The notes below the pieces were generated by a model, which had not been told where the DNA came from, searched no databases, and was given only the letters and a program-made list of their open reading frames with translations. A DNA stretch of 20,000 nt, from the IMG/VR virus record IMGVR_UViG_3300010362_000017; one strand, written 5' to 3'. Shown here in pieces: positions 2,752 through 19,924 of the stretch (the stretch's first letter is position 1; every line of letters begins with the position of its first letter). The stretch comes from an uncultured virus (IMG/VR IMGVR_UViG_3300010362_000017). Taxonomy: Duplodnaviria > Heunggongvirae > Uroviricota > Caudoviricetes. Position numbers and translations under genes: made by a program.

Positions 2752-3736
2752 AGTCGCCATCGTTCTTGCCGATGAACCCGCCACCCGCCAACTCGTTGGC
2801 GCACTCCATCACTAGCTGGCGGTCGCGCGCGCCGGTCTCGCGCACCAGGTCGTCAATCGTGTACCTGTAGCTGCTGCCGCGGATAACCCGCAGGATTGCG
2901 TGTTTCACGTTCTGCTTGATGATGGCCCACTGCGCGTCGGTCATCGCCAGGCTCATCTCGTGCAGGGATTGCGGCTTCGGCTTCGCTGCCGGTTCGGGCG
3001 GTTCGGGCTGCTTTTCCGCCTGCTTCCTCCTCAAGACGATGTTGGCCTTTTGATTCTTGAGCCGCTTGGCCAGCTTGCCCAGGACAACGGTCTGCTCGGT
3101 GATCCACTCCCGCGTTTGACCGTTTACCCTCCATTCCGGCACATAGCGGTTGTGCGCGTCGACCATCATGGGCGCTGCTTTGCGCTCCGCCGGCTTGCGG
3201 TAGTCGCGCTTGCGCCTGGGCTCTGGCTCGGGCGGAGCGGTCTTGGCGACAGAAGCAGCGGCGCGCTTGGCCTTGGTAAGAGTTTCGCTCCTCTCCCACT
3301 CGGCGTCGGCGAGTGCGGTCTGGAGGATACGACGCTCGCGCTCTGCCCGTAGTTTCGCTTCCTCCTCCGCGTGTATGCGCTGCATCTCGGCGCGCTGTTC
3401 GCTCACGGCAATACGGCTGGTACGGCGACGCTCCTTCTGTTCGGGAGTGAGCCGCACCGTCGTGTCGACGCCGAGACGGCGCACGACACCGGGTTCCTCA
3501 TCCCAATGGTTCTGCCAGTAGTCCATTTCCTCGTCGGGCGCGGGCCGGCGGTCGCCGGCAAAGTTCTGCCAGCCACCAACCTGCTGGGAGAGCGAGCCGT
3601 TTTCGATATATCCCCGGTCGCAAATGCGCTGAATGAACTCCCTGTCGTCCAAGGTGAGAGGGCGCGCCAAGAAATCGTTCCATTCCATGTAACGGAAGGC
3701 CCGCTTGATCGTCTTGGTGTAGACGCCCGGTTTCAC
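2744..3736 (-). CDS. hypothetical protein with coiled coil and possible C-terminal winged-helix-like domain
   Basis: 330 aa; GTGA overlap with the upstream gene; C-terminal ILRVIR...YTIDDLVRETG...ELAGGGFI. Confidence 0.65.
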   Translation of the reverse strand: MKPGVYTKTIKRAFRYMEWNDFLARPLTLDDREFIQRICDRGYIENGSLSQQVGGWQNFAGDRRPAPDEEMDYWQNHWDEEPGVVRRLGVDTTVRLTPEQKERRRTSRIAVSEQRAEMQRIHAEEEAKLRAERERRILQTALADAEWERSETLTKAKRAAASVAKTAPPEPEPRRKRDYRKPAERKAAPMMVDAHNRYVPEWRVNGQTREWITEQTVVLGKLAKRLKNQKANIVLRRKQAEKQPEPPEPAAKPKPQSLHEMSLAMTDAQWAIIKQNVKHAILRVIRGSSYRYTIDDLVRETGARDRQLVMECANELAGGGFIGKNDGDYD

Positions 3737-3993
3737 TTGCGCTTTGCCCTCTTACGACGTGGCGGTGCCCTCTTTTTCTTTCGCTGCCGCTCGGTGTAGT
3801 CGCGGAAATATCTGAGGTATGCCTCGATGTTGTGGAGCGAATCGCAAGCTGTCATCAGGCAGTTCCGCGTTCGCTCCTGGTAGTCCCGTATGTCGCGCAA
3901 AACCTGAGTGGCGGCCAGCAACTCGCGCACGCGCTGGCGTAGGGTTTCCTCATCGGCCGCCTTGATCTCCGCCTCGGTCATGATCTGAAACAT
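3733..3993 (-). CDS. small basic helical hypothetical protein (86 aa)
   Basis: TGATG coupling at 3991-3995; basic C-terminus. Confidence 0.55.
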   Translation of the reverse strand: MFQIMTEAEIKAADEETLRQRVRELLAATQVLRDIRDYQERTRNCLMTACDSLHNIEAYLRYFRDYTERQRKKKRAPPRRKRAKRK

Positions 3994-4187
3994 CACTTTG
4001 TCCTCGCACGGCAGCGCAACGCCCAGGCGGGACAACCGGGCGGCTTGGTCTGCTCTGCGGTGGGCCAGGGGCGATAGTCGGCGGCGCGGACGCGCGTGGT
4101 GAGAATCGTCACGATGAATAGGATGGCGACCACCAACGCGATGATGATCGTCACTTGCGCGCGCCAGACCTGGCGACCGGGAGTCAT
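3993..4187 (-). CDS. small single-pass membrane protein (64 aa)
   Basis: GGAGG RBS before ATG 4187; hydrophobic segment VTIIIALVVAILFIVTILT. Confidence 0.6.
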   Translation of the reverse strand: MTPGRQVWRAQVTIIIALVVAILFIVTILTTRVRAADYRPWPTAEQTKPPGCPAWALRCRARTK

Positions 4188-4333
4188 GTTTTCCTCCGCG
4201 TGTAGATGCCGGAGAAGGTGCGCCGGGCGCAGCGGTAGCAGAACTCCTCCTCCGGCTCTTTCAGGCGTGCCGGCTCGCGGTCGCCTTCCTCGCGGCGCCA
4301 GCACTCGTCACAGATTGGAACGGTGTAGTTCAT
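4184..4333 (-). CDS. 49-aa Zn-finger microprotein (not in the ORF track)
   Basis: MNYTVPICDECWRREEGDREPARLKEPEEEFCYRCARRTFSGIYTRRKT; ATGA overlaps at both ends. Confidence 0.65.
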   Translation of the reverse strand: MNYTVPICDECWRREEGDREPARLKEPEEEFCYRCARRTFSGIYTRRKT

Positions 4334-4545
4334 GCGCTCCGCTCCGATACTGTCACGTGGACTTCCATCAGCTTGCCGAATCGCGCAGCGCGGGTGAGCA
4401 CGTCGACCAGTGCTTTAGTCAAGACCTGGGCGTCACGCTCGAAGTCCATCCCGTGGGCCGACAATAATATCGGGGTGGGGTAATACCTCGGATCGTCTAT
4501 CCAGAGGTTGTCGGCGTTCCCCTGGAACCGTTCGTGTTTCATCAC
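4330..4545 (-). CDS. small hypothetical protein (71 aa)
   Basis: start/stop overlaps with both neighbours. Confidence 0.55.
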   Translation of the reverse strand: MMKHERFQGNADNLWIDDPRYYPTPILLSAHGMDFERDAQVLTKALVDVLTRAARFGKLMEVHVTVSERSA

Positions 4546-4727
4546 ACCGCCCCCATCGGCTTGCGTGCGCGCGCCAGCGTGTACCGGCCACGGCCAAGCT
4601 CGCGCAGGATGCCAATTTCCGCGAGGTGTCCGAGTGTCGGCAGTCGCTTGAGGCCGGCTCTGTGGTAGGCAGTCTTTAATACCGCGGCCTCACGGCGGCG
4701 GATCACGTGATTGACGCGCTTTCGCAT
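4542..4727 (-). CDS. small basic protein, possibly a winged-helix fragment (61 aa)
   Basis: AGGAGG RBS before ATG 4727; LAEIGILRELGRGRYTL. Confidence 0.55.
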   Translation of the reverse strand: MRKRVNHVIRRREAAVLKTAYHRAGLKRLPTLGHLAEIGILRELGRGRYTLARARKPMGAV

Positions 4728-5298
4728 GTGATGTCCTCCTGGGTTTGGTCTTACCGTCAAATCCTCTGGTGAGTTTCTTGTCGAAGCCTCGACTACGAAT
4801 CTTCCGCTTCGGCTTTTTGTTCCAATCGATGGCACTGTAGTTTTCGGCGTAGAGATCACGCGGTTCGTTCATGCGCTCGTAGGCGTTTTTGGCTCCCGCC
4901 TCGAAGCCTGCGCGAACAGCCTCGCCCATAGCTACGACGATATTACCGTGCGGGCCATGCAGTGCATTGCTCCAGTCGAGCAGGGCCTTCTGTGAGCGGC
5001 GCGCGTCCGCTTTCGTGCGAATGCGCCGGCTCTTGGCGATGATCTTGGCGTCCTCCCTAGTCTTCTCCTTGTGCGCTTTGCGCAGCATCGGCGTCAGGTT
5101 CCAGTACACGTCCTCGCCTTTGAACGTGTGCAGCCGGTTGTGATCGAAATGGAACAACGAAAGGAACTGGTGTTCCGTCATCTTCTTGGCGTCGGTGTAC
5201 CAGAGCGGCCCCTTGTAGCGCTCCATCGCATACGCCAGCAGGGCGCTGGCGCATTTGGTCCGCCATGAAATGTGCTTTCGACGAGTCTTGTCAGCCAT
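4690..5298 (-). CDS. HNH-like endonuclease
   Basis: FDH-x12-NL-x7-H-KEKT-x2-D-x3-IAK pattern plus basic KIRSRGF tail; start taken at MADK (5298). Confidence 0.6.
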   Translation of the reverse strand: MADKTRRKHISWRTKCASALLAYAMERYKGPLWYTDAKKMTEHQFLSLFHFDHNRLHTFKGEDVYWNLTPMLRKAHKEKTREDAKIIAKSRRIRTKADARRSQKALLDWSNALHGPHGNIVVAMGEAVRAGFEAGAKNAYERMNEPRDLYAENYSAIDWNKKPKRKIRSRGFDKKLTRGFDGKTKPRRTSHAKARQSRDPPP

Positions 5299-5316
5299 CG
5301 TGTGCAATGTTATAGG
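5288..5316 (+). promoter_or_regulatory. sigma70-like rightward promoter
   Basis: TTGTCA (5288-5293)-N17-TATAGG (5311-5316) with TG in the extended -10 position. Confidence 0.5.
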
Positions 5317-5336
5317 TGTATGGCGATGTCTGTCAA
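5309..5336 (-). promoter_or_regulatory. sigma70-like leftward promoter
   Basis: TTGACA (5336-5331)-N16-TATAAC (5314-5309). Confidence 0.55.
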
Positions 5337-5526
5337 CCGAAAGCCGCCGACCGTTTCCGTCACAGTTCGGCTCCCGCGCCGCCTGGCAGCGCGATTGAAG
5401 GAGGCCGCCAATGTTCGCGGTTGGCCACCGGCGCCCAGCCAGGCACAGATTGTTGCGCGTGGCGTGGAAATAGTCCTGGACACATTGAGCAAACAAGGCG
5501 GGGCGCTCAGTGACGGTACACGGTAG
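5326..5526 (+). CDS. ribbon-helix-helix (Arc/CopG-like) DNA-binding protein
   Basis: TVSVTVRLPRRLAARLKEAA...SQAQIVARGVEIVL: alternating beta strand followed by two helices. Confidence 0.7.
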   Translation: MSVNRKPPTVSVTVRLPRRLAARLKEAANVRGWPPAPSQAQIVARGVEIVLDTLSKQGGALSDGTR

Positions 5527-6091
5527 TACGGGCAATCCAGGACGCGCCAGCCTCAGAGAGCGTGCTGACGACCGCTACGATACGCCGCCGCAAGCGGTCC
5601 ACGCGCTGGTCAAAGCGGAAATGCTACCGCTGCACATCTGGGAGCCGGCCTGTGGTGCGGGCTCTATCGTCAACGTGCTGCGCGAGGCCGGCCATACCGT
5701 CATGGCGACGGACCTGCAGAACGGCGGATGTTATGACAGCCGCTTTGGCATTGACTTCCTGATGGAGTACACCGCGCCGATCGGCTGCGAAGCGATCATC
5801 ACCAACCCGCCGTACAAGCTGGCAGACCAGTTCGTGCGGCACGCGCTTACATTGGTGCCCAAGGTCATCATGCTCTTGCGGTTCAACTACTTGGAGGGCG
5901 TGGGCCACAGCGACATCATCGATAAGCACCTGGCGCACGTATATCTGTTCCGCAATCGTCTGCCGATGATGCACCGCAAGAACTGGGCCGGGCCAAAGTC
6001 TACCAGCATGGTTGCATTTGCGTGGTTCTCCTGGATGCGCGGCCACACCGGGCCGATGACGTTGAGCCGGCTGACGTGGACAGATGAGTGA
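5510..6091 (+). CDS. compact amino (N6-adenine or N4-cytosine) DNA methyltransferase
   Basis: DRYDTP (motif X), IWEPACGAG (motif I), DFL, IITNPPY (motif IV). Confidence 0.8.
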   Translation: MTVHGSTGNPGRASLRERADDRYDTPPQAVHALVKAEMLPLHIWEPACGAGSIVNVLREAGHTVMATDLQNGGCYDSRFGIDFLMEYTAPIGCEAIITNPPYKLADQFVRHALTLVPKVIMLLRFNYLEGVGHSDIIDKHLAHVYLFRNRLPMMHRKNWAGPKSTSMVAFAWFSWMRGHTGPMTLSRLTWTDE

Positions 6092-6599
6092 CGATGTTCG
6101 TATTCGGCTGACCTGGGACGAGATACTTGAGGCCGCTCTAGTTGGTTGCGTGACTAATATCGACAGCCTGAAGCGCAAATACGTGCCGGGCAACAATGCG
6201 CCAGAGGAGGAGAACTGGACTTTCAACATCGAGGGCAGATGCGGAGAGAAGGCCGTCGCCAAGCATTTCGGTGTGTACTGGGCCGCGATGACGAACATGG
6301 GCAATCCCAAGGCTGACGATGTTGGGCCGTATCAGACCAAGACCAACACCAGCCGCAAATGGGATGACCTGATCCTGCGCGATAGCGACAACATCGACCG
6401 CAACTATATCTCGGTGTTGAGCTTCCTGCCCGATTTCGTGATCACCGGATGGATGGAAGGCACGGAGGTTAAGCAGGAAAAATGGAGACGCGAAGGAAGC
6501 CCGGGCAGGGCGCCGGCGTTCTTCTTCCCGCGCAAACTGCTGCATCCGCTGAGAACATTGCCGGGGCTCGTGGTCGCGCGACGAAGGCCGCTGGTTTGA
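6084..6599 (+). CDS. hypothetical protein, possible PD-(D/E)XK-fold nuclease
   Basis: GRCGEKAVAK helix, then ADDVG and YQTKT; ATGAGTGA overlap with the methyltransferase. Confidence 0.55.
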   Translation: MSDDVRIRLTWDEILEAALVGCVTNIDSLKRKYVPGNNAPEEENWTFNIEGRCGEKAVAKHFGVYWAAMTNMGNPKADDVGPYQTKTNTSRKWDDLILRDSDNIDRNYISVLSFLPDFVITGWMEGTEVKQEKWRREGSPGRAPAFFFPRKLLHPLRTLPGLVVARRRPLV

Positions 6600-6724
6600 C
6601 ACGTAAAACCAAGCCGCCCGATTTGCAGGAATGGGTTGCCAGGTACGGGGGATATCAGAACATTCCGTGGGAAAAGTGGGACGCTGCGACGGCGCAGTAT
6701 CACATCGCGCGTCGGATGAGGTAA
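6596..6724 (+). CDS. 42-aa microprotein (MTRKTKPPDLQEWVARYGGYQNIPWEKW...)
   Basis: TTGA overlap with the upstream stop; ends 3 nt before the next ATG. Confidence 0.5.
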   Translation: MTRKTKPPDLQEWVARYGGYQNIPWEKWDAATAQYHIARRMR

Positions 6725-6727
6725 AAC

Positions 6728-7255
6728 ATGCCAACAGGCGGCGACGGCTCGGTCATCCTGGAGCAAGCCTATGCGCTCAGTAAGATGCTCAACAACAAAA
6801 GCTGGCACGGGTTGTTGCGCAGCGGCATTACTCCATCGGATATCGACTTGCCGTACATCCCGGTGGTGTTCGGCAGCTTTGCACGTACCATCCTCTGTGA
6901 TTTGTCGAACAGCTACAGACAGTGGTCCGAGGCGCCGACCGGCCAGCATCGGCTCTATCGAGAGTTGACAACATCGGCGCCGCACATTGCCGTGCTTTGT
7001 CACCACAACGTCACCCCGGAGATGGGCCGCAAGATCGACACGCTGTACGATATCGACTCGTTTCAAGTGATGCTGGAGGATTTTGGTTTCGTGTACTCGA
7101 AGCTATTCGAGGCCGACGACTGGCAACCTTTCGTCGAGCGCTGGGTGAACGATCCGCATGGACCGCAGTTCATACGTCGCCGGTTGCTCGGCAGCTGGGC
7201 CAAGCAGAACAGCCCAACAACTCCGGCCTCATTGCAGACGGCCGTTGCAAAGTGA
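6728..7255 (+). CDS. hypothetical protein, possible degenerate PD-(D/E)XK-like fold
   Basis: 175 aa; GAGG RBS; ITPSDID...ILCDLS...PTGQ. Confidence 0.6.
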   Translation: MPTGGDGSVILEQAYALSKMLNNKSWHGLLRSGITPSDIDLPYIPVVFGSFARTILCDLSNSYRQWSEAPTGQHRLYRELTTSAPHIAVLCHHNVTPEMGRKIDTLYDIDSFQVMLEDFGFVYSKLFEADDWQPFVERWVNDPHGPQFIRRRLLGSWAKQNSPTTPASLQTAVAK

Positions 7256-7273
7256 TAGCTATTCGAGTACACT
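7245..7273 (+). promoter_or_regulatory. sigma70-like promoter
   Basis: TTGCAA (7245-7250)-N17-TACACT (7268-7273). Confidence 0.6.
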
Positions 7274-7277
7274 GAAC

Positions 7278-7379
7278 GCGATGGTCATGGCACTGTGCCG
7301 GTACGCGGCGTGGGGTTGCTGCCCACGGGACATAAGGGAGTAGCTTCCCTCCGGTTTGTCCATGACCATCGCTTTTTTT
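7278..7379 (+). ncRNA. candidate sRNA or attenuator leader, multi-branched, ending in a U7 tract
   Basis: perfect 13-bp inverted repeat 7278-7290/7360-7372, inner stem 7297-7301/7351-7355, hairpins 7309-7327 and 7335-7350, then T7 at 7373-7379. Confidence 0.6.
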
Positions 7380-7389
7380 GGAGGCCCCG

Positions 7390-7605
7390 ATGGCACACGA
7401 GTGGACACAGTATCGGCGCACAACGGTACAGGACATGCGGCCCTACGAGCCGGGCGAAGACGTAACGAACATCGAGATCAATCCGATTGACGCTGCGCAG
7501 GGCTCGCCGAAAGAGGGTGACATGATCGCCCGCAATCCGAACGATGAGACCAAGGGCTGGCTCGTGAGCCAGCACTATTTCGCGCACAACTTTACGCGGG
7601 TATGA
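7390..7605 (+). CDS. conserved-looking small phage protein (71 aa)
   Basis: GGAGG RBS; YRR...MRPYEPGED...GSPKEGDMIARNP...WLV...YF..NF. Confidence 0.7.
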   Translation: MAHEWTQYRRTTVQDMRPYEPGEDVTNIEINPIDAAQGSPKEGDMIARNPNDETKGWLVSQHYFAHNFTRV

Positions 7606-7859
7606 CCTACGATCCTAACTACAAGCTCAAGCACAAGCCGCCGCCAGTCCACCGGCTGGCGTACTACAAGCGCCTGCCACCGCCCATGGTGGGCGATCCG
7701 CGGCCCGATCTCGGCTGGCACTGCAAGAACCCCTGGAAGCAGCGCTGCGAGGCGGTCTACGCCGCGATGATGGCGTTCAAGCACGGCACCGTGCCGCCCA
7801 GGAGCAGGGTTGGTCTCTGGTACTACGACGTGGACACCGACCATTACAGGCAGGCGTGA
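7602..7859 (+). CDS. small hypothetical protein (85 aa)
   Basis: ATGA and GTGA overlaps with its neighbours. Confidence 0.55.
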   Translation: MTYDPNYKLKHKPPPVHRLAYYKRLPPPMVGDPRPDLGWHCKNPWKQRCEAVYAAMMAFKHGTVPPRSRVGLWYYDVDTDHYRQA

Positions 7860-9382
7860 TGCAAGAGTTGCGACCATACCAGGAGGAGGCCCTGCAAGCC
7901 CTTCGGGAGACCGTGGGGCAGGGCGTTCGCCGGCTGGTAGTCCAGGCCCCGACCGGGAGCGGAAAGACGCTGCTTGCGGCTACGGTTGTCCAGGCGTGCC
8001 TAGCCAAGCGCAATCGAGCGGTTTTCTGCGTGCCCGCCATCCAGCTGGTCGACCAGACCGTGGAAATGTTCTACGCGCAGGGCATCCGGGGGATTGGCGT
8101 TATCCAGGCTAACCACGTCATGACGGATTGGTCCCAGCCGGTCCAGGTCGCCTCCATCCAGACCATCCGCAGCCGCCGCGTCTACCCGGACGCCAAGGTC
8201 GTGATCATCGATGAGGTGCACCAGCTACATAAGGCCCACGTGAAATGGCTGCACCATCCCGATTGGGAGAACGTGCCGTTCATCGGCCTGTCCGCCACGC
8301 CCTGGACGACCGGGCTGGGGCGGTACTTCGACTCGCTCTTGGTTATGTCGACCACCGCGGACCTGATCGAGCAGGGCTATCTCAGCAAGTTCAAGGTGTT
8401 CGCGTCGGACCACCCGGACTTGTCGCACGTCAAGACCGTGGCCGGCGACTACCACGAAGGCCAGCTTTCCAGGGTGATGCAGCAAAGCCCGCTGGTCGCC
8501 AACGTCGTGGAAACCTGGCGGTCGAAGTGGAACAAGGACAAGACATTCCTGTTCGCGGTCGACTGCGCCCACGCCCAGATGCTCCAGGCGCGCTTTCGCG
8601 ATGCCGGGATTAGCTGCGGCTACCAGGACGCCAACACCTCGCTGGCTGATCGGGCGGCGCTCAAGCGGGCGTTCCACAACGGCGAGGTGAGGATCATCTC
8701 CAACGTCGGCACGTTGACGGTGGGCGTCGACTACGATGTGCGTTGCCTGATCCTGGCACGGCCGACCAAATCGGAAATGCTGTACGTGCAGATCATCGGG
8801 CGGGCGTTGCGCACCGCCGAGGGCAAAGACCACGCGCTGATCCTCGATCACACCGACACCACTAGTCGGTTGGGATTTGTCACCGATATCCATCACGAGC
8901 ACCTGTCGCAGGGCAAGCTCGACTCTACCCAGAAGCACGTGCCCCGTCCGGTACTGCCCAAGCCGTGTCCCAAGTGCACGGCGCTGATGCCGGCCGGCGT
9001 GAAGGTGTGTCCGGAGTGCGGGTTCGAGCGCAAGGCGCCGGAGAGCAAGATCATCGAGCGCGAGGGCCGCTTGGTCGAGTGGGACTACCAGTTCCGCAAG
9101 CCCAAGTACCCCAAGGCGATAGACGAGCCGATAATCTACACCTACGAAGAGAAGGCCCGGTTCTACGCCCAGCTGCGCGGCTACGGTATTGCCCGCAACT
9201 TCAAGCCGGGCTGGGCCAAGCTCAAATACCGGGAGAAGTTCAATGGCGTCTGGCCGGAGTGGGCCTGGGAGCGGCACCATCCCTTGCCGCCCGGCCCGGA
9301 GGTCATGATGTTCATCAAATCCCGGTTCATCGCGTGGGCCAATGATCCGAGAAACCCCAACTACCGACCGCGCTCTGCGTGA
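7856..9382 (+). CDS. superfamily 2 DExH helicase, YejH/RadD-like, with C-terminal Zn ribbon
   Basis: LRPYQ (Q motif), APTGSGKT, IIDEVH, GLSATP, LTVGVD, QIIGRALR; CPKC...CPECG. Confidence 0.92.
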   Translation: MMQELRPYQEEALQALRETVGQGVRRLVVQAPTGSGKTLLAATVVQACLAKRNRAVFCVPAIQLVDQTVEMFYAQGIRGIGVIQANHVMTDWSQPVQVASIQTIRSRRVYPDAKVVIIDEVHQLHKAHVKWLHHPDWENVPFIGLSATPWTTGLGRYFDSLLVMSTTADLIEQGYLSKFKVFASDHPDLSHVKTVAGDYHEGQLSRVMQQSPLVANVVETWRSKWNKDKTFLFAVDCAHAQMLQARFRDAGISCGYQDANTSLADRAALKRAFHNGEVRIISNVGTLTVGVDYDVRCLILARPTKSEMLYVQIIGRALRTAEGKDHALILDHTDTTSRLGFVTDIHHEHLSQGKLDSTQKHVPRPVLPKPCPKCTALMPAGVKVCPECGFERKAPESKIIEREGRLVEWDYQFRKPKYPKAIDEPIIYTYEEKARFYAQLRGYGIARNFKPGWAKLKYREKFNGVWPEWAWERHHPLPPGPEVMMFIKSRFIAWANDPRNPNYRPRSA

Positions 9383-11467: not shown

Positions 11468-11649
11468 AGCTTGCATTCCTTCTTGAGCGTCAGAATCCAT
11501 CGGCGCTTCCAGACTGCCGGCACGGGCGCGTCGTCGAGGGTTAGCTCGTTCACCATGTCGCCAAGGAACTTGCGGTCTTCCTTCGCGATACAGTAGGCGC
11601 TCTGCTTTTGGAGTAGCGCGACCAGGCTGAGCCATTCGTCCGGTGTCAT
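11464..11649 (-). CDS. small hypothetical protein (61 aa)
   Basis: coupled by 4-nt overlaps on both sides. Confidence 0.55.
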   Translation of the reverse strand: MTPDEWLSLVALLQKQSAYCIAKEDRKFLGDMVNELTLDDAPVPAVWKRRWILTLKKECKL

Positions 11650-11867
11650 CCTTGTAGCTCCTTCACCAATCGGTCGAACATGGGAATGCTCTTGGTCAGG
11701 CGGACGCGAACCATCAACCGCAGCAGGCGCGCGACGCTCTCCGGTATCTCAGTCTCGCCGCTGCCGTAGCGGTACTCGGTACGGATGGAGACGCCCAGTG
11801 CCTCGGCCATGCGCTCGTGCGTCCAGCCTAGCTCGGCGCGGGCGTGCTCGTATTGTCGCGGTGTCAT
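11646..11867 (-). CDS. XRE/Cro-C1 family helix-turn-helix regulator
   Basis: ARAELGWTHERMAEALGVSIRTEYRYGSGETEIPESVARLL. Confidence 0.85.
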   Translation of the reverse strand: MTPRQYEHARAELGWTHERMAEALGVSIRTEYRYGSGETEIPESVARLLRLMVRVRLTKSIPMFDRLVKELQG

Positions 11868-13854: not shown

Positions 13855-14124
13855 TCAGACTCCTTCTGGGTTGCGTTGCCAGCCTCCCGGGACGGGCGGC
13901 TCGGCCTCTTGTTGCTCATAGTGCTCTGCCATTGCGTGGCATTCGGCCGCGAACTCGTCGGCAGACATACCTAGCGGCCAGTTGGTCGGTACGCTGTTGT
14001 TGAGCCGTTCATTCTCGTGCAGCACCGCGCTGATAATGTCGGCGGCTTGCGCGATACGGCGGAAGGCGGTGGCCAAGGTGTGGCGGTGGATTTGGTCCAC
14101 ATAAACGTCGTTGCTCTCGGCCAT
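13855..14124 (-). CDS. small hypothetical protein (89 aa)
   Basis: TAATG coupling; AAGGA RBS. Confidence 0.6.
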   Translation of the reverse strand: MAESNDVYVDQIHRHTLATAFRRIAQAADIISAVLHENERLNNSVPTNWPLGMSADEFAAECHAMAEHYEQQEAEPPVPGGWQRNPEGV

Positions 14125-14321
14125 TAGTGCGTTTCCTTTTTCAGCATGTCCCATATCTCTCGCATTTCGGGATCGTCGCGTGGCGCGTTGTGGTACACAT
14201 CGGCAAGACGGCGAACGGCCGCCATAAGGTCATCCGGTAGTGCCTTGCGTTTCTCCCACAGTGCGTCGTGCTCGCGCACAACAGCGGCCACAGCTGCGAG
14301 CAACCTAACGGCGGGTGTCAT
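14124..14321 (-). CDS. small hypothetical protein (65 aa)
   Basis: AAGGAG RBS; ATGA overlap. Confidence 0.6.
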   Translation of the reverse strand: MTPAVRLLAAVAAVVREHDALWEKRKALPDDLMAAVRRLADVYHNAPRDDPEMREIWDMLKKETH

Positions 14322-14545
14322 GAGGCTCCTTGCGGTTTTCTCGCGCCCGATTCGATCTCGTTGCCGCGCGCCTTGGCGATGATGCGCAAGAGGCGCCGTA
14401 GCTCGGCGACGAAACCGGCGATGAAAGCGAACTGCGCTTCCTGGTCGGAGTCGCTGTCCATTGCCTTGCTACAGGCGGCGGCGAAGGTCTCGGCCGCATA
14501 GGCGCGGCCGGCCTTGTGGGCGGCAACCATGCGCTCGGTGGTCAT
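14318..14545 (-). CDS. small hypothetical protein (75 aa)
   Basis: GGAGG RBS; abuts the upstream stop. Confidence 0.6.
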   Translation of the reverse strand: MTTERMVAAHKAGRAYAAETFAAACSKAMDSDSDQEAQFAFIAGFVAELRRLLRIIAKARGNEIESGARKPQGAS

Positions 14546-14546
14546 G

Positions 14547-14729
14547 TCAGCCTGCCTCCGGTTCGCTTATCAAGATAAAGGCGTGATCGTCGTCGGTGCT
14601 GTTCGCGATGTCGCAAGCGGTGCGGCAAAGCTGTTCGAGCATATCGCACATTGTTTCGGCGTCGCTTGCTTCAAGCTCTACCGTTACGGTGCGGGTGATG
14701 CGCTTTGGGCGCTTCAGTGCGTGTGCCAT
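14547..14729 (-). CDS. small hypothetical protein (60 aa)
   Basis: fills the gap in a tightly packed operon. Confidence 0.5.
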   Translation of the reverse strand: MAHALKRPKRITRTVTVELEASDAETMCDMLEQLCRTACDIANSTDDDHAFILISEPEAG

Positions 14730-15052
14730 GTCTTGCCCCCATCGTGTGAGTGGTGGCCTTGCGCGACCATGGTGCGGTCAACCTTGCGGCCGGCTAGAAG
14801 CTCGGCGCGCTCGATTGCCAGGCGCGCCATTGCGTTGCCTGTCGCCATTATCCTTCGATAGGCGCAGGCGTCGGTGATGCCGTCGCGGCTGGTCGTGTCC
14901 CAGCCTTCAAAGGCGATTGCGCCTTGCGGGCCGATGCGAACCTTGACGCGCCCCGCGGCCAGAGCGGCGGCAAGCCGCTCCGTCGCTTGGCGCACCTCGG
15001 CCGCGCGCTCGCTGATGGTTTGATTGCGCTTTAGCCTGGTGTCGCAGGGCAT
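14714..15052 (-). CDS. AAA-module-associated protein with N-terminal MPCD and a His-rich C-terminus containing an Asp-box-like motif
   Basis: GAGGTG RBS; ends GHHSHDGGKTWHTH. Confidence 0.7.
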   Translation of the reverse strand: MPCDTRLKRNQTISERAAEVRQATERLAAALAAGRVKVRIGPQGAIAFEGWDTTSRDGITDACAYRRIMATGNAMARLAIERAELLAGRKVDRTMVAQGHHSHDGGKTWHTH

Positions 15053-15053
15053 G

Positions 15054-15905
15054 TCACACCTCGAACAAACGGCCCTGAGACACGGGCGCCGCGGTTTCGC
15101 TCTTGGGCTCGTCGTCGTAGTCGATCACGCGGCCGTCGCCGTCGCGTGCAACGTCGTCGGGGTAGGCCGGCGCCTCGGTCTCGGCCTCAAAGTCCACGGC
15201 GCGGCCGGTGTGCTCTACCTCGGCGATGGGCGCGGCCTCGCCGATGTCCAGGAACGCCGTGCGCGCTTCTTCAATGCGAGCGATGGCGGCCCGGTCAATC
15301 TCTTGCGCTCCGGTTTCCGCGGCCTTCACGGCCTCGCGCGCGGTCTTGCGTGCGATATCAATGGCGCCTTGGATTTTCTGTTGCATCTCCGGGGTTAGCA
15401 TCTGCGCCACGGCGCGCGCGCGGTTGCAGGCGTCCCGGATCACCTTAACGTCGAGGTTCGCCATACCCTCGGCCATGTTCGCCATAAGGTCGCTCATTTC
15501 GGCGTTGATTGCCTTGATTGCTTCGGCGTCATCCGGGGCGATGCGGCCGGCCAGCACGTTGAAGGTAACCCGCGTCACGGCCGCGCTGGCGTTGAAGTCA
15601 TCGACGATGGCGCGGGCGGCGGCCACGGCGCCGTCGAGCGCTTCGCGCTTGCTCTCCGGGCACAGCAAGCCAAAGGCCGATTGTGCGCAAACAGATTGTA
15701 CAGCGCTGCGGGCCGCGCTCCGGGCTTTGCTGGCGCGCTCTTGCTCGGCCTTGTCGGTGATGTGGCGGTTTGTCTCCCAGCGCGACTCCTCGGCGCCGTC
15801 CACGGTGGTGGTGGTGCCAAGGTCCGTTGTGGAGTACCGCACATTGCCCCTGACGCTGGTCGTCACAGCGACCAGCAAGCCGGGGCGAAGGGTAGAGGTA
15901 AACAT
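15054..15905 (-). CDS. AAA-module partner protein (283 aa), helical, possibly DUF3150-like
   Basis: CAGGAG RBS before ATG 15905; beta-rich N-terminus, FGLLCP motif, long amphipathic helices, acidic tail. Confidence 0.75.
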   Translation of the reverse strand: MFTSTLRPGLLVAVTTSVRGNVRYSTTDLGTTTTVDGAEESRWETNRHITDKAEQERASKARSAARSAVQSVCAQSAFGLLCPESKREALDGAVAAARAIVDDFNASAAVTRVTFNVLAGRIAPDDAEAIKAINAEMSDLMANMAEGMANLDVKVIRDACNRARAVAQMLTPEMQQKIQGAIDIARKTAREAVKAAETGAQEIDRAAIARIEEARTAFLDIGEAAPIAEVEHTGRAVDFEAETEAPAYPDDVARDGDGRVIDYDDEPKSETAAPVSQGRLFEV

Positions 15906-15906
15906 G

Positions 15907-15924
15907 TGTTTAGCTCCTGTGTTG
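15907..15924 (-). repeat. 18-nt leader repeat, copy 1 (CAACACAGGAGCTAAACA)
   Basis: identical to 17591-17608; 1 nt before ATG. Confidence 0.9.
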
Positions 15925-15935
15925 CGTTTCGCTAA

Positions 15936-15952
15936 CATGCCATTTTGGCATG
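15936..15952. promoter_or_regulatory. palindromic operator-like site CATGCCA-TTT-TGGCATG
   Basis: perfect 7-bp arms; lies just downstream of a minus-strand TTGACC (15962-15957). Confidence 0.5.
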
Positions 15953-16020
15953 ATACGGTCAAGCGGGGGGCTTGCCGGTCTTGCGCGCGCTTGTGGAAGG
16001 CGGCGCAAGGGCTGCAAGTC

Positions 16021-17589
16021 CTAGCCTAAGTCGAGCACGCGCCCCGTGGGGCCGGTACGCGCTTCCTGGCTGGTCGCCGGCCGCGCGCGTTTGCTCCACG
16101 CGCGGAGTCGCTGCATCTTCTCCGGCATGGAGTCGACCAGCGGCACAACCTTGCCGGCGGCTGCGATCAGGTCGGCCGGCGTGATCTCGCGGGCACCATC
16201 GGCGAAGGCCGTAAACATGGCCTCGTCAATTAGGCTCGCTACCTCGGCGCCTGTGAACTTGTCGCAATGGCTGGCAATCTCGTCGGCACCATCGGCGCCG
16301 AATAGCTTCACGGGATCACGGCCACGGCTGCGGGTGGTTGCCTCGATGATTTGCGCGCGCTCGATAGGCGTGGGCAAGTCAACGAAGAACATTTCATCCC
16401 AGCGGCCTTTGCGTAGAAGCTCCGGGGGGAGCGCTTCCACATCGTTGGCAGTGGCAAAAATGAACGCCTGATTTGTGCGGTCGTTCATCCATGTCAGCAT
16501 GGCGCCCAAGGCATCGGAAGCCACACCGCCGTCACCCTGCGGCCCGGTGCTGCCGGCGAAAGCCTTGTCCATCTCGTCTATCCAAAGGACGACGCGCCCC
16601 ATGGACTCAACGGTACGCTGCGCCTCCCGGATATTGCGCTCGCTCTCGCCTACGTATTTGGAGCGCAACGCGCCCATATCCCAGCGGATGATTGGGCAAC
16701 GCCATGCGGTGCCGGTCGCCTTGGCGCTAAAGGTCTTGCCACAGCCACTAACGCCGATGACCAAGACGCCCTTGGGGATTGCCAGGCCATAGGCTCTGGC
16801 CTCCGGGCTATAGGCAATGGTCCGCTGCATGAGCCACCCCTTCATGCTGTCGAGGCCGCCTACGGCGTCGAGGCCGCCAGGCAAAGGCTCAACCCAAGTA
16901 AGGAGTCCGCTGCGGGCGATGACTCGCTTTTTCTCCGCCGCGATCATCTCGGGATCAATGCGACGAGTCTTGACCAATGACGCGGCGAAAGCGGCCTCGG
17001 CCTCCAAGCTATTCAAGCCAATGGCTGCATCTATCGCGATGTCGCGATTGCCGTTCAGGGGCTCCACGCGCTCGCCCCCGTTTTTCATGGTGCGGTCGAG
17101 TACTTGCCCGATCTCTTCGCGGTCGGGCTTCGGCCAGTCCATCACCACAGCATCGCCACCGCCAAGCTCGGGCGGTACGTTGCCGGAAGGCGCGAGCACG
17201 ATGATTGAAACGCCAAGCGGGGGAAGCTCGCGCGCGAGGTTGCGCAACTGCCTCAAAGTCTGAATGCCGATGGGGCCGTCTAACCACTTGTGCAGGTCGC
17301 GCATAACCCACACGGTGCGGCCGCCGCCTTCCTTGGCCTTGGCGCGAATGAATTTGAGCGCTTCGGTGGCGTCCTGCGTCTCTTGGCCGGCGACTAGCTT
17401 GCCGCTCAAGTCGGTCAGCCCTTGGGCACAGTCCCAGAACATTGGCATATACCCGGCGCTCTCACACGCGCGGGCAAGGTAAAGCTCGACTCGCACCTCC
17501 TCCGGGCTGTTAACCCAAAGGACGGCGTTGCGAGCACGAAGCAATGCGGCCACATCGGCCGCTTGCGTCTGCGATCTGGTAGGGGGCAT
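16021..17589 (-). CDS. Ycf46-like AAA+ ATPase (degenerate N-terminal AAA-like domain plus intact classic AAA domain), 522 aa
   Basis: VGGLDSMKGWL, Walker A GVSGCGKT, pore loop SKYVGESE, Walker B VLWIDE, sensor 1 ATAN, LPPELLRKGRWDEMFFVDLP. Confidence 0.9.
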   Translation of the reverse strand: MPPTRSQTQAADVAALLRARNAVLWVNSPEEVRVELYLARACESAGYMPMFWDCAQGLTDLSGKLVAGQETQDATEALKFIRAKAKEGGGRTVWVMRDLHKWLDGPIGIQTLRQLRNLARELPPLGVSIIVLAPSGNVPPELGGGDAVVMDWPKPDREEIGQVLDRTMKNGGERVEPLNGNRDIAIDAAIGLNSLEAEAAFAASLVKTRRIDPEMIAAEKKRVIARSGLLTWVEPLPGGLDAVGGLDSMKGWLMQRTIAYSPEARAYGLAIPKGVLVIGVSGCGKTFSAKATGTAWRCPIIRWDMGALRSKYVGESERNIREAQRTVESMGRVVLWIDEMDKAFAGSTGPQGDGGVASDALGAMLTWMNDRTNQAFIFATANDVEALPPELLRKGRWDEMFFVDLPTPIERAQIIEATTRSRGRDPVKLFGADGADEIASHCDKFTGAEVASLIDEAMFTAFADGAREITPADLIAAAGKVVPLVDSMPEKMQRLRAWSKRARPATSQEARTGPTGRVLDLG

Positions 17590-17590
17590 C

Positions 17591-17608
17591 TGTTTAGCTC
17601 CTGTGTTG
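17591..17608 (-). repeat. 18-nt leader repeat, copy 2 (CAACACAGGAGCTAAACA)
   Basis: identical to 15907-15924; 1 nt before ATG. Confidence 0.9.
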
Positions 17609-17659
17609 GACTCATCAGGCGCCGCGTCACGGCGCGAGGGGCTTGCGCCCCTTTCGTCC
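17608..17659 (-). ncRNA. type II hammerhead ribozyme
   Basis: GGAC-GAAA-GGGGC-GCAA-GCCCC-UC-GCGCCG-UGACG-CGGCGC-CUGAUGA-GUCC: intact CUGAnGA and GAAA core, three fully paired stems, NUH cleavage triplet CUC. Confidence 0.93.
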
Positions 17660-17863
17660 TTAGCCTCCCCAGCCATGTTCGCGTTGCCAAGCAAGCTCGC
17701 GAAGCTCAAGCTCGCGCCCCTCGATCACGCGCTCGGCGTTGGGGTTGCCGTGCCGCATGTCCCAGCGGCGAAAGCACGGCCAGCACGCAATGAGCCCGGT
17801 CGCCTTGGCGCCTCGACACAGCGGGCAAGTGGTGGAAGCTCTGACGCGGGGGTTGTCGCTCAT
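17660..17863 (-). CDS. small Zn-finger protein (67 aa)
   Basis: CPLC...CWPC; ATGA overlap with the upstream gene. Confidence 0.65.
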   Translation of the reverse strand: MSDNPRVRASTTCPLCRGAKATGLIACWPCFRRWDMRHGNPNAERVIEGRELELRELAWQREHGWGG

Positions 17864-18021
17864 GAGCGCACCCCACACGCGCGGTAGAAGCGGTCACGGT
17901 CGAAGCGGGGGTTTTGGCGTTGGCAGAGATCAGCCATTGCCTGCGCGTTTTGCCGGCGTTCCCATTCGTCCTTGATGGCGCGGATAGCGACGGCCAGCGC
18001 TCGGAAGTGCTTGCGTGTCAT
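17860..18021 (-). CDS. small early-type phage protein (53 aa)
   Basis: AAGGA RBS; MTRKHF...NPRFDRDRFYRAC motif. Confidence 0.7.
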   Translation of the reverse strand: MTRKHFRALAVAIRAIKDEWERRQNAQAMADLCQRQNPRFDRDRFYRACGVRS

Positions 18022-18055
18022 GTGTCTAGTTCCTTGGTTTGAGTGAAACGCCCAT

Positions 18056-18106
18056 AAGGTACAGAGGCTTAACACCCTGTCAATATGGCATCATGCCAAT
18101 ATGACA
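18056..18106 (-). promoter_or_regulatory. leftward sigma70-like promoter with an overlapping 29-bp palindrome
   Basis: TTGACA (18083-18078)-N16-TACCTT (18061-18056); TGTCA-ATA-TGGCAT-C-ATGCCA-ATA-TGACA at 18078-18106. Confidence 0.6.
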
Positions 18107-18210
18107 TAAGCCCTTGATCTATGCCGTACATTTATTTTTTGGACGCAATCAGGTCAGCGCCGCTGCCATATCTAGGGGTAGTAGGTCGGCCGATAGGTCA
18201 GCACTATTGC

Positions 18211-18223
18211 CAAGTCGTTGATT
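18211..18223 (-). promoter_or_regulatory. IHF consensus site
   Basis: AATCAACGACTTG fits WATCAANNNNTTR; a near-match lies at 18107-18119. Confidence 0.4.
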
Positions 18224-18393
18224 TCGCTGTGAGTTCCGGCGATTGAGCCTTGACCGGCTGCGCGAATCATGGCGAGATTCGCGTCGCGCGCGCGCGCATT
18301 CTTCTGTTGCCACAGTCTAGGGACTACCGAGAAAGCAAGGAAGAAGAAGCAAGTAAGACAGAGCGGCGGCGGTTTAGCTTCAAGGTGTAGTCA

Positions 18394-18606
18394 ATGGGCT
18401 GGGGCTACGATGATTTGCCGGAAATAGACCTGGGGGCGCAAGCCACCGATGAGGTCAAGCTCGGCCAACGCTACAGCGGCAAGCGGCACGCTAACACATG
18501 GGCCGCAGCGGGCCGGCAAGCGCAAGTCCCCATTTGGTGGCAAGAGGTCAAGCGGGTATGCCGCGAAGCCGGCGAGGCGCTCGAACGGTCCCGGGTGACG
18601 CTATGA
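18394..18606 (+). CDS. small hypothetical protein (70 aa)
   Basis: AAGGTG RBS; ATGA overlap with the next gene. Confidence 0.5.
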   Translation: MGWGYDDLPEIDLGAQATDEVKLGQRYSGKRHANTWAAAGRQAQVPIWWQEVKRVCREAGEALERSRVTL

Positions 18607-19049
18607 CAACGCGCCGCGCCTTCCTGGCCGGCCTCGGTAGCCTCTTGGCCGCCCCAGCCATCGTGCAGTGCTCTAACCTCATGTCGCTCCGCGGCGTGCC
18701 GCTCCAGCTATGGGAGCACCGCGAGGTCGGCATCGGCTACGTCATCACCCGCCAGGCCGTCGAGAGCATGACTCGCGAGGCAAGCGAGCGCTGGCGTGAG
18801 CATCTGCGCACAACCCCGGACCTGACCGCCCATCAGCTATGGGACACGGATATGCTGGAGATCGCCGGCCCGCCTGCCGACGTGTTCAAAAGCTGGCGCC
18901 TCGGCCTCGGCTATGAAGGCCGCTACCCCAAACGCCTAGAACCGCGCCCCGGCCGCCTCTGGGTGCAAGGTGACCGCACAGACCGCGCCGCGCGCTACTT
19001 GCTCGGCCAACAAGCCATACCAGGCGACAAAGCGCGATCTACCAGCTAA
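18603..19049 (+). CDS. protein with a twin-arginine (Tat) signal-like N-terminus (148 aa)
   Basis: MTTRRAFLAGLGSLLAAPAIV; start at the ATGA overlap at 18603. Confidence 0.6.
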   Translation: MTTRRAFLAGLGSLLAAPAIVQCSNLMSLRGVPLQLWEHREVGIGYVITRQAVESMTREASERWREHLRTTPDLTAHQLWDTDMLEIAGPPADVFKSWRLGLGYEGRYPKRLEPRPGRLWVQGDRTDRAARYLLGQQAIPGDKARSTS

Positions 19050-19059
19050 CTTCCAAGGC

Positions 19060-19533
19060 ATGGGAAAGCCAACCACACCACGCCCTCGCAACGCCCTCGG
19101 CCAATACCTGGTCCGCCCCGGCGCAACACCGCGCAAGCGACCAGACCAGCCCCAGCCCGTCGACGCATGGTCTGGACAAGGTGGCGGCGACGTTTACCGC
19201 GCGCGGCGAGCGCTTAACCTCGCGACCATTGACGGATTGCAACGCGCTTTTGCCAAAGGCGGCCAGAAAGCGATTGACAAGGTAATGCGGCAGTCGCCTG
19301 CTATCTTCTTGAAAATGTTAGTCCTTCTAGTGCCGCGTGAACTAGAGGTGTTGCAGTCGAGCGGCGTTAAGGCGATGACCGACGAACAGATAGACGCGGC
19401 GATCGAGACCATAAAGGGAATGATCGAGCGCCGCGACGCTGGCGTGATTGATGTTACCCCAGCGTTACCCCCAGCCCCCGACGATAGTGAAGAAGCTAAT
19501 AGCTCCAATGAGTTAGCCCCATTGGACCGCTGA
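19060..19533 (+). CDS. putative terminase small subunit (157 aa)
   Basis: basic N-terminus, helical core GQKAIDKV...PAIFLKMLVLLVPREL, MTDEQI and VIDVTP tail resembling phage TerS proteins; no TerL in the window to confirm. Confidence 0.55.
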   Translation: MGKPTTPRPRNALGQYLVRPGATPRKRPDQPQPVDAWSGQGGGDVYRARRALNLATIDGLQRAFAKGGQKAIDKVMRQSPAIFLKMLVLLVPRELEVLQSSGVKAMTDEQIDAAIETIKGMIERRDAGVIDVTPALPPAPDDSEEANSSNELAPLDR

Positions 19534-19739: not shown

Positions 19740-19907
19740 TTAGGATTTGGCGGCGTGTCGTGCGCGGTAGGCGGCTTGTTTTTGGGCTGGGGTGAGTGCG
19801 TTACCGGATTTCGGTCGACCTGGGCGCTTTTTGGTAACGGGTGTTACCGAAATAGATTGATTTTCGGTAACGGATTTCGGTAACGTCTGAGTTTCGGTAA
19901 CGGGCAT
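19740..19907 (-). CDS. small basic DNA-binding-like protein (AT-hook-like GRP plus helix); start may lie further upstream
   Basis: KKRPGRPKSGNALTPAQKQAAYRAR; frame also open from 19982 and to the window edge. Confidence 0.5.
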   Translation of the reverse strand: MPVTETQTLPKSVTENQSISVTPVTKKRPGRPKSGNALTPAQKQAAYRARHAAKS

Positions 19908-19917
19908 TTTGGTAACG
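19799..19917. repeat. cluster of TTTYGGTAACG repeats (iteron-like)
   Basis: direct copies at 19829, 19862, 19875, 19892 and 19907; inverted copy at 19843-19852; partial inverted copy at 19799. Confidence 0.8.
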
Positions 19918-19924
19918 GGAGTGG

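Follow-up and report, generated by a model that had tools for sequence, protein, structure and literature searches.

The right half of the window, that is, the whole 20,000-nucleotide (nt) stretch analyzed here from an uncultured Caudoviricetes virus (IMG/VR record IMGVR_UViG_3300010362_000017), is a leftward run of small genes including those for a Ycf46-like AAA+ ATPase and two further proteins, hereafter designated A, B, and C, respectively (Table 1). A TTGACA hexamer lies near 18080; of the genes following it, A comes third, behind open reading frames (ORFs) of 53 and 67 residues. C (15052) starts 1 nt past the stop codon of B (15054), as stated in the initial annotation, which was made from the sequence alone. 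All three proteins matched PHROG families of unknown function (A, phrog_8638, E 8e-153; B, phrog_11021; C, phrog_11784), and a Pfam domain above the cut-off was found only in A among the three. The trio is a variant of an annotated, mechanistically unexplained gene set.

The A, B, and C trio and its ATPase clade

With B as the query, the 80 best-matching of 108 viral loci were analyzed; every one contained A, and 79 contained C, the lone exception ending at a contig edge. The longest contig recorded for B has 64,814 bases. With C as the query (the best 80 of 123), all three genes were present in 74 of 80 loci, in the order ABC in 63 and BCA in 11, and the merged B- and C-query set contained the complete trio in 97 of 105 distinct loci, trio membership holding while gene order shifts. 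With A as the query (the best 80 of 98), 56 loci with long matches were analyzed, 23 distant short matches (L420–L443) being left out; B was present in 30 of the 56, in 28 together with C and in one with C cut by the contig end (contig of L027). The remaining 26 loci carried neither B nor C, and 20 of these had DUF3150, DUF1257, or DUF2997 nearby, as detected with our own profiles. Moreover, in a FastTree phylogeny of 62 ATPases over 502 columns, which was midpoint-rooted and weak at its deep nodes, the B-bearing sequences formed one clade (support, 0.998) nested among the other Ycf46-like sequences, B being present in 30 of 30 loci of the A clade versus none of the 26 other Ycf46-like loci. 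These synteny results from three queries substantiate the initial proposal of a conserved, uncharacterized early-region AAA+ module with partners, and a literature search, run without most subscription papers and supplements (including the gene-context tables of ribozyme surveys), found no paper describing the function of the trio.

No fourth conserved neighbor was found in these loci, the next real family occurring in 15 of them; the 67-residue upstream ORF, with relatives in 6 of about 107 loci, is not a conserved part of the module. With our own profiles, neither DUF1257 nor DUF2997 was detected in 4987 same-strand neighborhood ORFs, within flanks of 4–6 kb, or in the B+C loci of the A-query set, and B and C themselves gave no Pfam hit, in line with the early remark that neither family is recognizable here. 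A bridging locus was found in L388 (IMGVR_UViG_3300038829_000267, 3668–9017), which carries A, B, DUF1257, DUF2997, and a small partner, with no C, and is the only B-bearing locus with DUF1257/DUF2997 in the A-query set. Two real loci were obtained from GTDB genomes, both on contigs of metagenome-assembled genomes, besides one spurious 35-residue hit, and among annotated phages the trio occurs in 34 records of cluster O mycobacteriophages.

Protein A consists of a degenerate N-terminal half, an intact C-terminal AAA module (residues 275–404; PF00004, E 8e-25) with its lid, and a tail ending in GRVLDLG. The intact pore loop, Walker motifs, and arginine finger described initially, as well as the degenerate N-terminal domain, were all located: Walker A is GVSGCGKT (279–286), the pore loop KYVG (311–314), and Walker B DE (338–339), followed by N382, R393, and R396; G279, K285, D338, E339, N382, R393, and R396 are invariant in 87 aligned A sequences. 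Thus, A has every mark of a classical-clade AAA+ unfoldase that was looked for (Walker A and B, sensor 1, arginine fingers, and aromatic pore loop 1), and its best matches in the PDB are Cdc48, p97, and VAT (residues 233–494, E down to 2e-40). In the N-terminal half, Walker A is missing and RD replaces the DE of Walker B; this half nevertheless contains invariant residues (R20, E31, R33, E35, W52, G57, R97, and R113) and is presumably an inactive AAA domain that has been retained for binding. Residues 3–511, the degenerate half included, align with the ATPase of L236 (E 9e-61). The designation Ycf46-like rests on such DUF1257/DUF2997-adjacent ATPases, the comparison set containing neither a curated Ycf46 model nor a cyanobacterial Ycf46.

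The predicted model of B was confident up to residue 220, with a mean predicted local distance difference test (pLDDT) value of 85, and comprised an alpha+beta domain (residues 9–122), three long helices (127–219), and a low-confidence tail. The earlier term "helical partner" therefore fits the long helices and not the first 122 residues. An alignment of DUF3150 (PF11348), built from Pfam-positive genome hits, relatives all carrying PF11348, and viral members collected via its own profile, was compared with that of B by hhalign. The two matched at a probability of 70.4% (E 3.9e-5), with 196 columns aligned colinearly, against 0.6 for a reversed control; relative to DUF3150, B has a central gap of about 38 residues. 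The profile probability rose with alignment depth (1.3, 5.7, 21.8, and finally 70.4%). When the DUF3150 profile was run over the 4987 neighborhood ORFs, which include 101 B members and 452 other ORFs of at least 200 residues, B members accounted for 16 of the 20 hits at E ≤ 1. On the basis of the profile comparison, which is of moderate and not decisive strength, and of L388, in which B takes the usual DUF3150 slot, we judge B to be very probably a compact remote homologue of DUF3150. Of the "different adaptors" proposed initially, C is indeed different; B most likely is not, since it would be a distant member of DUF3150, the family that usually accompanies the mobile Ycf46-like ATPases.

Fold searches with B found nothing in the PDB at E ≤ 0.001, the best Z being 6.0 for helices only, and ferredoxin-like folds gave Z 5.1–5.5. 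An SPFH/Band 7 ancestry of B was dropped at a profile probability of 0.2; SPFH structures (VIA) reached Z 4.5–5.0, tied with ferredoxin-like Cas2 and helical bundles in a comparison for which the N-domain was folded as part of B. No usable match to B or C was obtained from the ESM Atlas, and B had no match in 72,556 plasmids. These blank fold searches for B and C do not indicate a new fold. In proteobacterial loci, DUF3150 adjoins unrelated long ORFs, with no Ycf46-like ATPase in flanks of about 1.5 kb. In the proteobacterial genomes L218 and L222, the DUF3150 genes are followed by long ORFs, constituting a second DUF3150 context, and we take these ORFs to resemble metallopeptidase/vWA proteins.

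The predicted model of C had a pLDDT of 82 overall, with values under 60 for its 12 C-terminal residues. Cys3, Asp61, Cys63, His101, and His103 are invariant in 87 aligned rows, and the most divergent members (L392 and L393) keep both Cys residues and HxH and have lost the Asp-box-like motif; a Cys2His2 metal site is therefore the likelier core of C than an Asp-box, and C likely carries a metal site made from two Cys and two His residues. Correspondingly, the Asp-box part of the earlier label "His/Asp-box protein" does not hold, a single BNR/Asp-box copy scoring 15.5 bits against a cut-off of 27. No Pfam match or other family assignment was obtained for C. Its fold search gave a best Z of 4.4 among 48,161 chains, with nothing standing out, and in BFVD it matched only its own Dylan orthologue. 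Identification of C with DUF1257 (PF06868) was dropped (profile probability 0.5, E 0.12, 48 sequences), and comparison with DUF2997 (PF11211) gave a probability of 13.6 with E 0.002 over just an 18-column beta-hairpin (reversed control, 1.2). In L301 (5576–6342), C stands alone, with no A or B within 6 kb on either side, and may be what is left of a former module; a 118-residue ORF carrying RELDL close to its end precedes it.

A and B share a short tail motif. The sequence R/K-x-hydrophobic-D/E-hydrophobic ends A in 78 of 87 sequences, and the same motif occurs in the tail of B, after the folded part, and often twice, in 72 of 82 sequences, five rows without an anchor being left out; shuffling gave a mean of 3.1 and at most 9; the B tail of the window has three motif-like copies, GRAVDF, GRVIDY, and GRLFEV. 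A looser end pattern was found in none of 69 C proteins and in 13 of 2064 other ORFs. Similar C-terminal tails occur in several DUF1257/DUF2997-type Ycf46-like loci. The motif appears to resemble the IXI tail of small heat-shock proteins and, in a few B proteins, the clamp-binding QxxLF motif; most tail copies lack the Q and terminal LF of the clamp motif.

Leaders, palindromes, and the hammerhead ribozyme

The initial claim that A and B have an identical leader is nearly right: repeat analysis showed that the two leaders (Table 1) agree at 21 of 22 nt and are not strictly identical. A third copy (77%) lies upstream of the first gene in the run, and this shared 22-nt leader is essentially a repeated ribosome-binding site. 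A consensus promoter scan of 14000–18600 found none. Two related palindromes each stand beside a TTGAC hexamer, TGGCAT-N-ATGCCA (18086–18098) at the operon head and CATGCCA-N3-TGGCATG (15936–15952) between A and B. Both are possible candidate operators, and the latter, with its TTGACC, might alternatively be an internal promoter.

Table 1 Features of the A, B, and C locus in the window
Feature	Position	Strand	Remarks
A, Ycf46-like AAA+ ATPase	16021..17589	-	522 aa
B	15054..15905	-	283 aa
C	14714..15052	-	112 aa
67-aa upstream ORF	17660..17863	-	its stop codon adjoins the hammerhead
Leader and ribosome-binding site of A	17587..17608	-	22 nt
Leader and ribosome-binding site of B	15903..15924	-	22 nt
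Perfect 7-bp palindrome between A and B	15936..15952	.	adjoins a minus-strand TTGACC hexamer
Type II hammerhead	17608..17659	-	full core GAAA, CUC, CUGAUGA
Hammerhead stem II arms	17659-17656 and 17611-17608	-	4 bp, open
Hammerhead GAAA	17655-17652	-	
Hammerhead stem I	17635-17619	-	6 bp; 7 counting a U-G pair
Hammerhead core CUGAUGA	17618-17612	-	
Predicted cleavage site	after C17636	-	

As first reported, the ATPase gene is preceded by a ribozyme, which we identified as a complete type II hammerhead lying 18 nt ahead of the start-codon region of A; the adenine at 17660, immediately 5′ to stem II, completes the stop codon of the upstream gene. The type II assignment is based on the core, the NUH, closed stems I and III, an open stem II, and covarying stems, all four standard pair types being found at stem I positions 1–5 and stem II position 2. 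The hammerhead descriptor gave one hit in the window and none in 300 composition-matched random 20-kb sequences. No Rfam match was obtained for the whole window at E ≤ 1 or, with Hammerhead_II, for a 201-nt stretch at E ≤ 10. Sixteen sister copies in nine other loci scored 26.8–38.3 bits against RF02276, one of them passing the cut-off of 37.

A pattern scan of IMG/VR yielded at least 132 stretches, and at least 184 distinct copies were counted across all the loci analyzed. Stem II has 4 bp in 172 of the 184 copies, an A, which lies outside the search pattern, stands directly before stem II in 178, and a ribosome-binding site with a start codon follows within 45 nt in 143 (versus 11 in the control). 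U at +7 is part of the pattern and is also present in 27 of 35 copies outside it; the accessible part of PMC9217987 describes a U(+7)-A trans-Hoogsteen contact in hammerheads, which the present subfamily may also use. Pseudoknots between loop I and the 3′ tail showed no excess (29 of 170 versus 30.5 re-dealt). In 18 of the 184 copies (L086–L217 and other loci), NTCAG opens the 3′ tail and varies together with position 7 of the core (GTCAG where this is C, nine times; ATCAG where it is T, seven times), and pairing of this tail with the catalytic core could aid product release or dampen cleavage; the window copy has no NTCAG tail. In several phages (L120, L121, L093, L141, L147, and L060), four to six or more hammerheads lie within a few kb, one preceding nearly every small gene.

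The co-occurrence of the trio and an upstream hammerhead, which the initial annotation proposed as a check, was seen for the trio (97 of 105 loci) and not for the ribozyme: of the 93 loci with enough flank, 6 have a hammerhead no more than 350 nt ahead of A, as does L055 with less flank. The other 87, including Corndog, had no hammerhead by the descriptor, which requires a canonical core; other ribozyme classes were scanned in nine loci and the window only. Moreover, five of the eight hammerhead-bearing loci contain three to six copies ahead of several different genes. Because of the count of 6 in 93 and the copies before unrelated genes, the earlier idea that self-cleavage provides the system with post-transcriptional control is unsupported. 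If the hammerhead were an integral, regulated control element of the trio, its real presence just ahead of A here and in those few loci would be explained; this is, however, very improbable and largely refuted by the distribution, given the loci lacking it, the multicopy loci, and the frequency of the motif ahead of start codons elsewhere. Clusters of type II hammerheads flanking single prophage genes, proposed to process long phage transcripts into messages of gene length, are described in the available part of PMC3088659 (Perreault et al. 2011), and since this arrangement has already been reported, the hammerhead is a known, common, and optional phage punctuation and not part of the module. 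In vivo activity of three such RNAs in Desulfovibrio is described in the part of PMC8782182 available. The ribozyme adds little as a system feature; the subfamily is a natural minimal hammerhead, which may serve as a compact insulator part.

Elsewhere in the window, ORFs occur at 193–1311, 5510–6091, 7856–9382, 11646–11867, and 18970–19533, the products of which include an ERF-family annealing protein, a helicase, and an Xre-type helix-turn-helix protein, together with methyltransferase-like and small-terminase-like proteins called by eye without a confirmed family match. Near the right end (19825–19922), there are short direct repeats around GGTAACGG.

A possible remodelling machine and its rivals

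We propose, with the arguments on its two sides about evenly balanced, that A, B, and C constitute a dedicated three-part machine for remodelling early in infection, which would be a reduced branch of the mobile Ycf46/DUF3150/DUF1257/DUF2997 set with tail-mediated docking. Members of the AAA family form rings and thread proteins through them; by analogy, A would assemble into a Cdc48-like ring, in which the C-terminal module threads protein through the aromatic pore and the catalytically dead N-terminal half may serve as a docking platform. B, as a compact DUF3150, would be recruited via the R-x-hydrophobic-D/E-hydrophobic strands in its flexible tail. Because the same strand ends the ATPase, A and B tails probably use one docking groove, for which the tail of A itself may compete. 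C would function as a small metal-binding cofactor in place of DUF1257 plus DUF2997, and the trio would remodel a target outside itself early in infection. Separately, the hammerhead is predicted to cut the long early message after 17636, leaving an ATPase message with a 5′-OH, a hairpin, and a 46-nt leader. A predicted complex of A, B, and C, in which C was scored as the partner, gave a score of 0.00, which is evidence neither way. More tentatively, the trio may represent the minimal form of an AAA+ machine widespread in phages and bacteria, in which the dead AAA domain reads an R-x-hydrophobic-D-hydrophobic address on the motor and on the DUF3150-type partner, a single Cys2His2 metal protein without a known fold replaces DUF1257/DUF2997, and a specific host complex is remodelled early.

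Several observations weigh against the three-part machine. In the C-query set, three loci of one lineage have A followed directly by C, B being absent from the DNA available, and C alone was found in three more, two at a contig edge and the third flanked by 6 kb to the left and right. A single bridging locus supports the exchange of C for DUF1257/DUF2997. The tail motif is missing from 9 of the 87 ATPase ends and 10 of the 82 B tails. As for the kinship of B, no Pfam family matched B at E ≤ 0.1; only 1 of 50 relatives matched DUF3150 (E 0.019, below the cut-off); the shallower profile tests gave just 1.3, 5.7, and 21.8%; and a DUF3150-labelled protein came at rank 8 in Foldseek with a weak score (E 0.033, TM-score about 0.32). 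What the analysis establishes is the genes, their motifs, synteny, and clade, the tail motif, and the ribozyme anatomy; that A forms a ring and threads protein, that the three proteins bind one another, that a docking groove exists, that C binds metal, that the ribozyme cleaves, and that there is an outside target are inferred.

Alternatively, B might be the substrate of A, a helix-built polymer or cage disassembled by A, which would grip the tail motifs much as Vps4 acts on ESCRT-III, while the B assembly does the job in the cell. This appears unlikely, although the long helices and the low-confidence tail with one to three motif copies are consistent with it, and the occurrence of DUF3150 beside unrelated long ORFs, away from any Ycf46-like ATPase seen in the flanks, would fit a role of its own. 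However, a pure substrate tag leaves unexplained why A carries the same end motif, and the comparison with the cage-forming SPFH family gave a profile probability of 0.2 and middling structural Z values of up to 5.0. If the tail instead addressed A and B separately to a host protein, such as a chaperone, a protease, or a clamp, or were a degradation signal, no contact between A and B would be needed. The short and terminal nature of the motif would suit such an address, as would its apparent resemblance to the IXI tail and, in a few B proteins, to QxxLF. However, phages with widely differing hosts, mycobacteriophages included, have retained it, few other ORFs in the loci end in it (13 of 2064), and the Q and the final LF expected of a clamp motif are absent from most copies; we regard this explanation as quite unlikely.

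It is far less probable that the trio is a toxin–antitoxin or anti-phage pair of the IteA/IteS kind, or a set of co-inherited passengers without a joint function. Although A is weakly similar to IteA, the score is 46 bits against a cut-off of 510, and neither B nor C resembles a subtilisin protease; likewise, AAA ATPases of the broad superfamily are antitoxins in SGI1 according to the available part of PMC10954446, whereas B is absent from the 72,556 plasmids searched. Mere passengers are difficult to reconcile with a linkage that survives changes in gene order.

Comparison with known systems

ATPases of the Ycf46 type occur widely, in phages and in cyanobacteria, plastids, and other bacteria, and the literature searched reports phenotypes for them and no mechanism. 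New here are the DUF3150 link, the bridging locus L388 with the clade, the tail motif as defined above, and the finding that the ribozyme is separate from the module. The trio is the smallest Ycf46-type version found here, is present in the cultured phage Corndog, which grows on the non-pathogenic laboratory host M. smegmatis mc2155, and offers three handles, namely a Walker B trap, the five-residue tail motif, and four likely metal ligands; for these reasons, the open question of Ycf46 function becomes testable. If the trio is indeed the minimal machine, its solution in Corndog would reveal for the first time how a Ycf46-family protein works, with relevance to the members in cyanobacteria and plastids as well.

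Compared with the type II hammerheads of prophages (RF02276; PMC3088659, as far as available), the window copy has the same topology and core, and its subfamily differs in that stem I is fixed at 6 bp, position +7 is U, and stem II, of 4 bp, follows an adenine. With Cdc48, p97, and VAT, A shares the aromatic pore loop, Walker A and B, and two conserved arginines; in contrast, no p97-type N-domain was detected in A, which has a single intact ATPase module, and its partners are unrelated to the known p97 cofactors as far as compared. With the set of Ycf46, DUF1257 (Ycf35), DUF2997, and, on mobile elements, DUF3150, the trio shares an ATPase that aligns over nearly its full length and nests among those of the set, and a B that is a probable remote DUF3150, whereas the B+C loci carry C with no DUF1257 or DUF2997 nearby. 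According to Pfam, DUF1257 and DUF2997 stand beside related ATPases of phages L338C and SM1. In the part of PMC13683863 available, cyanobacterial Ycf46 is described as a KaiC-interacting ATPase dependent on stress and ppGpp (guanosine tetraphosphate), with no mechanism given there.

Close counterparts are gp96, gp95, and gp93 of Corndog and their cluster O orthologues (A, 47%; B, 37%; C, 64%). The available part of Cresawn et al. 2015 (PMC4351075) lists the ATPase and reports that mass spectrometry of samples from Corndog or Catdawg recovered peptides of A, B, and C, with no function assigned there. Corndog differs from the window in an extra 86-residue gene (gp94) between B and C, in having no hammerhead by the descriptor, and in TTGACA-17-TAGAAT directly ahead of gp96. 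The gene order is nevertheless the same, and the AAA-ATPase gp96 ends in the same tail as A of the window.

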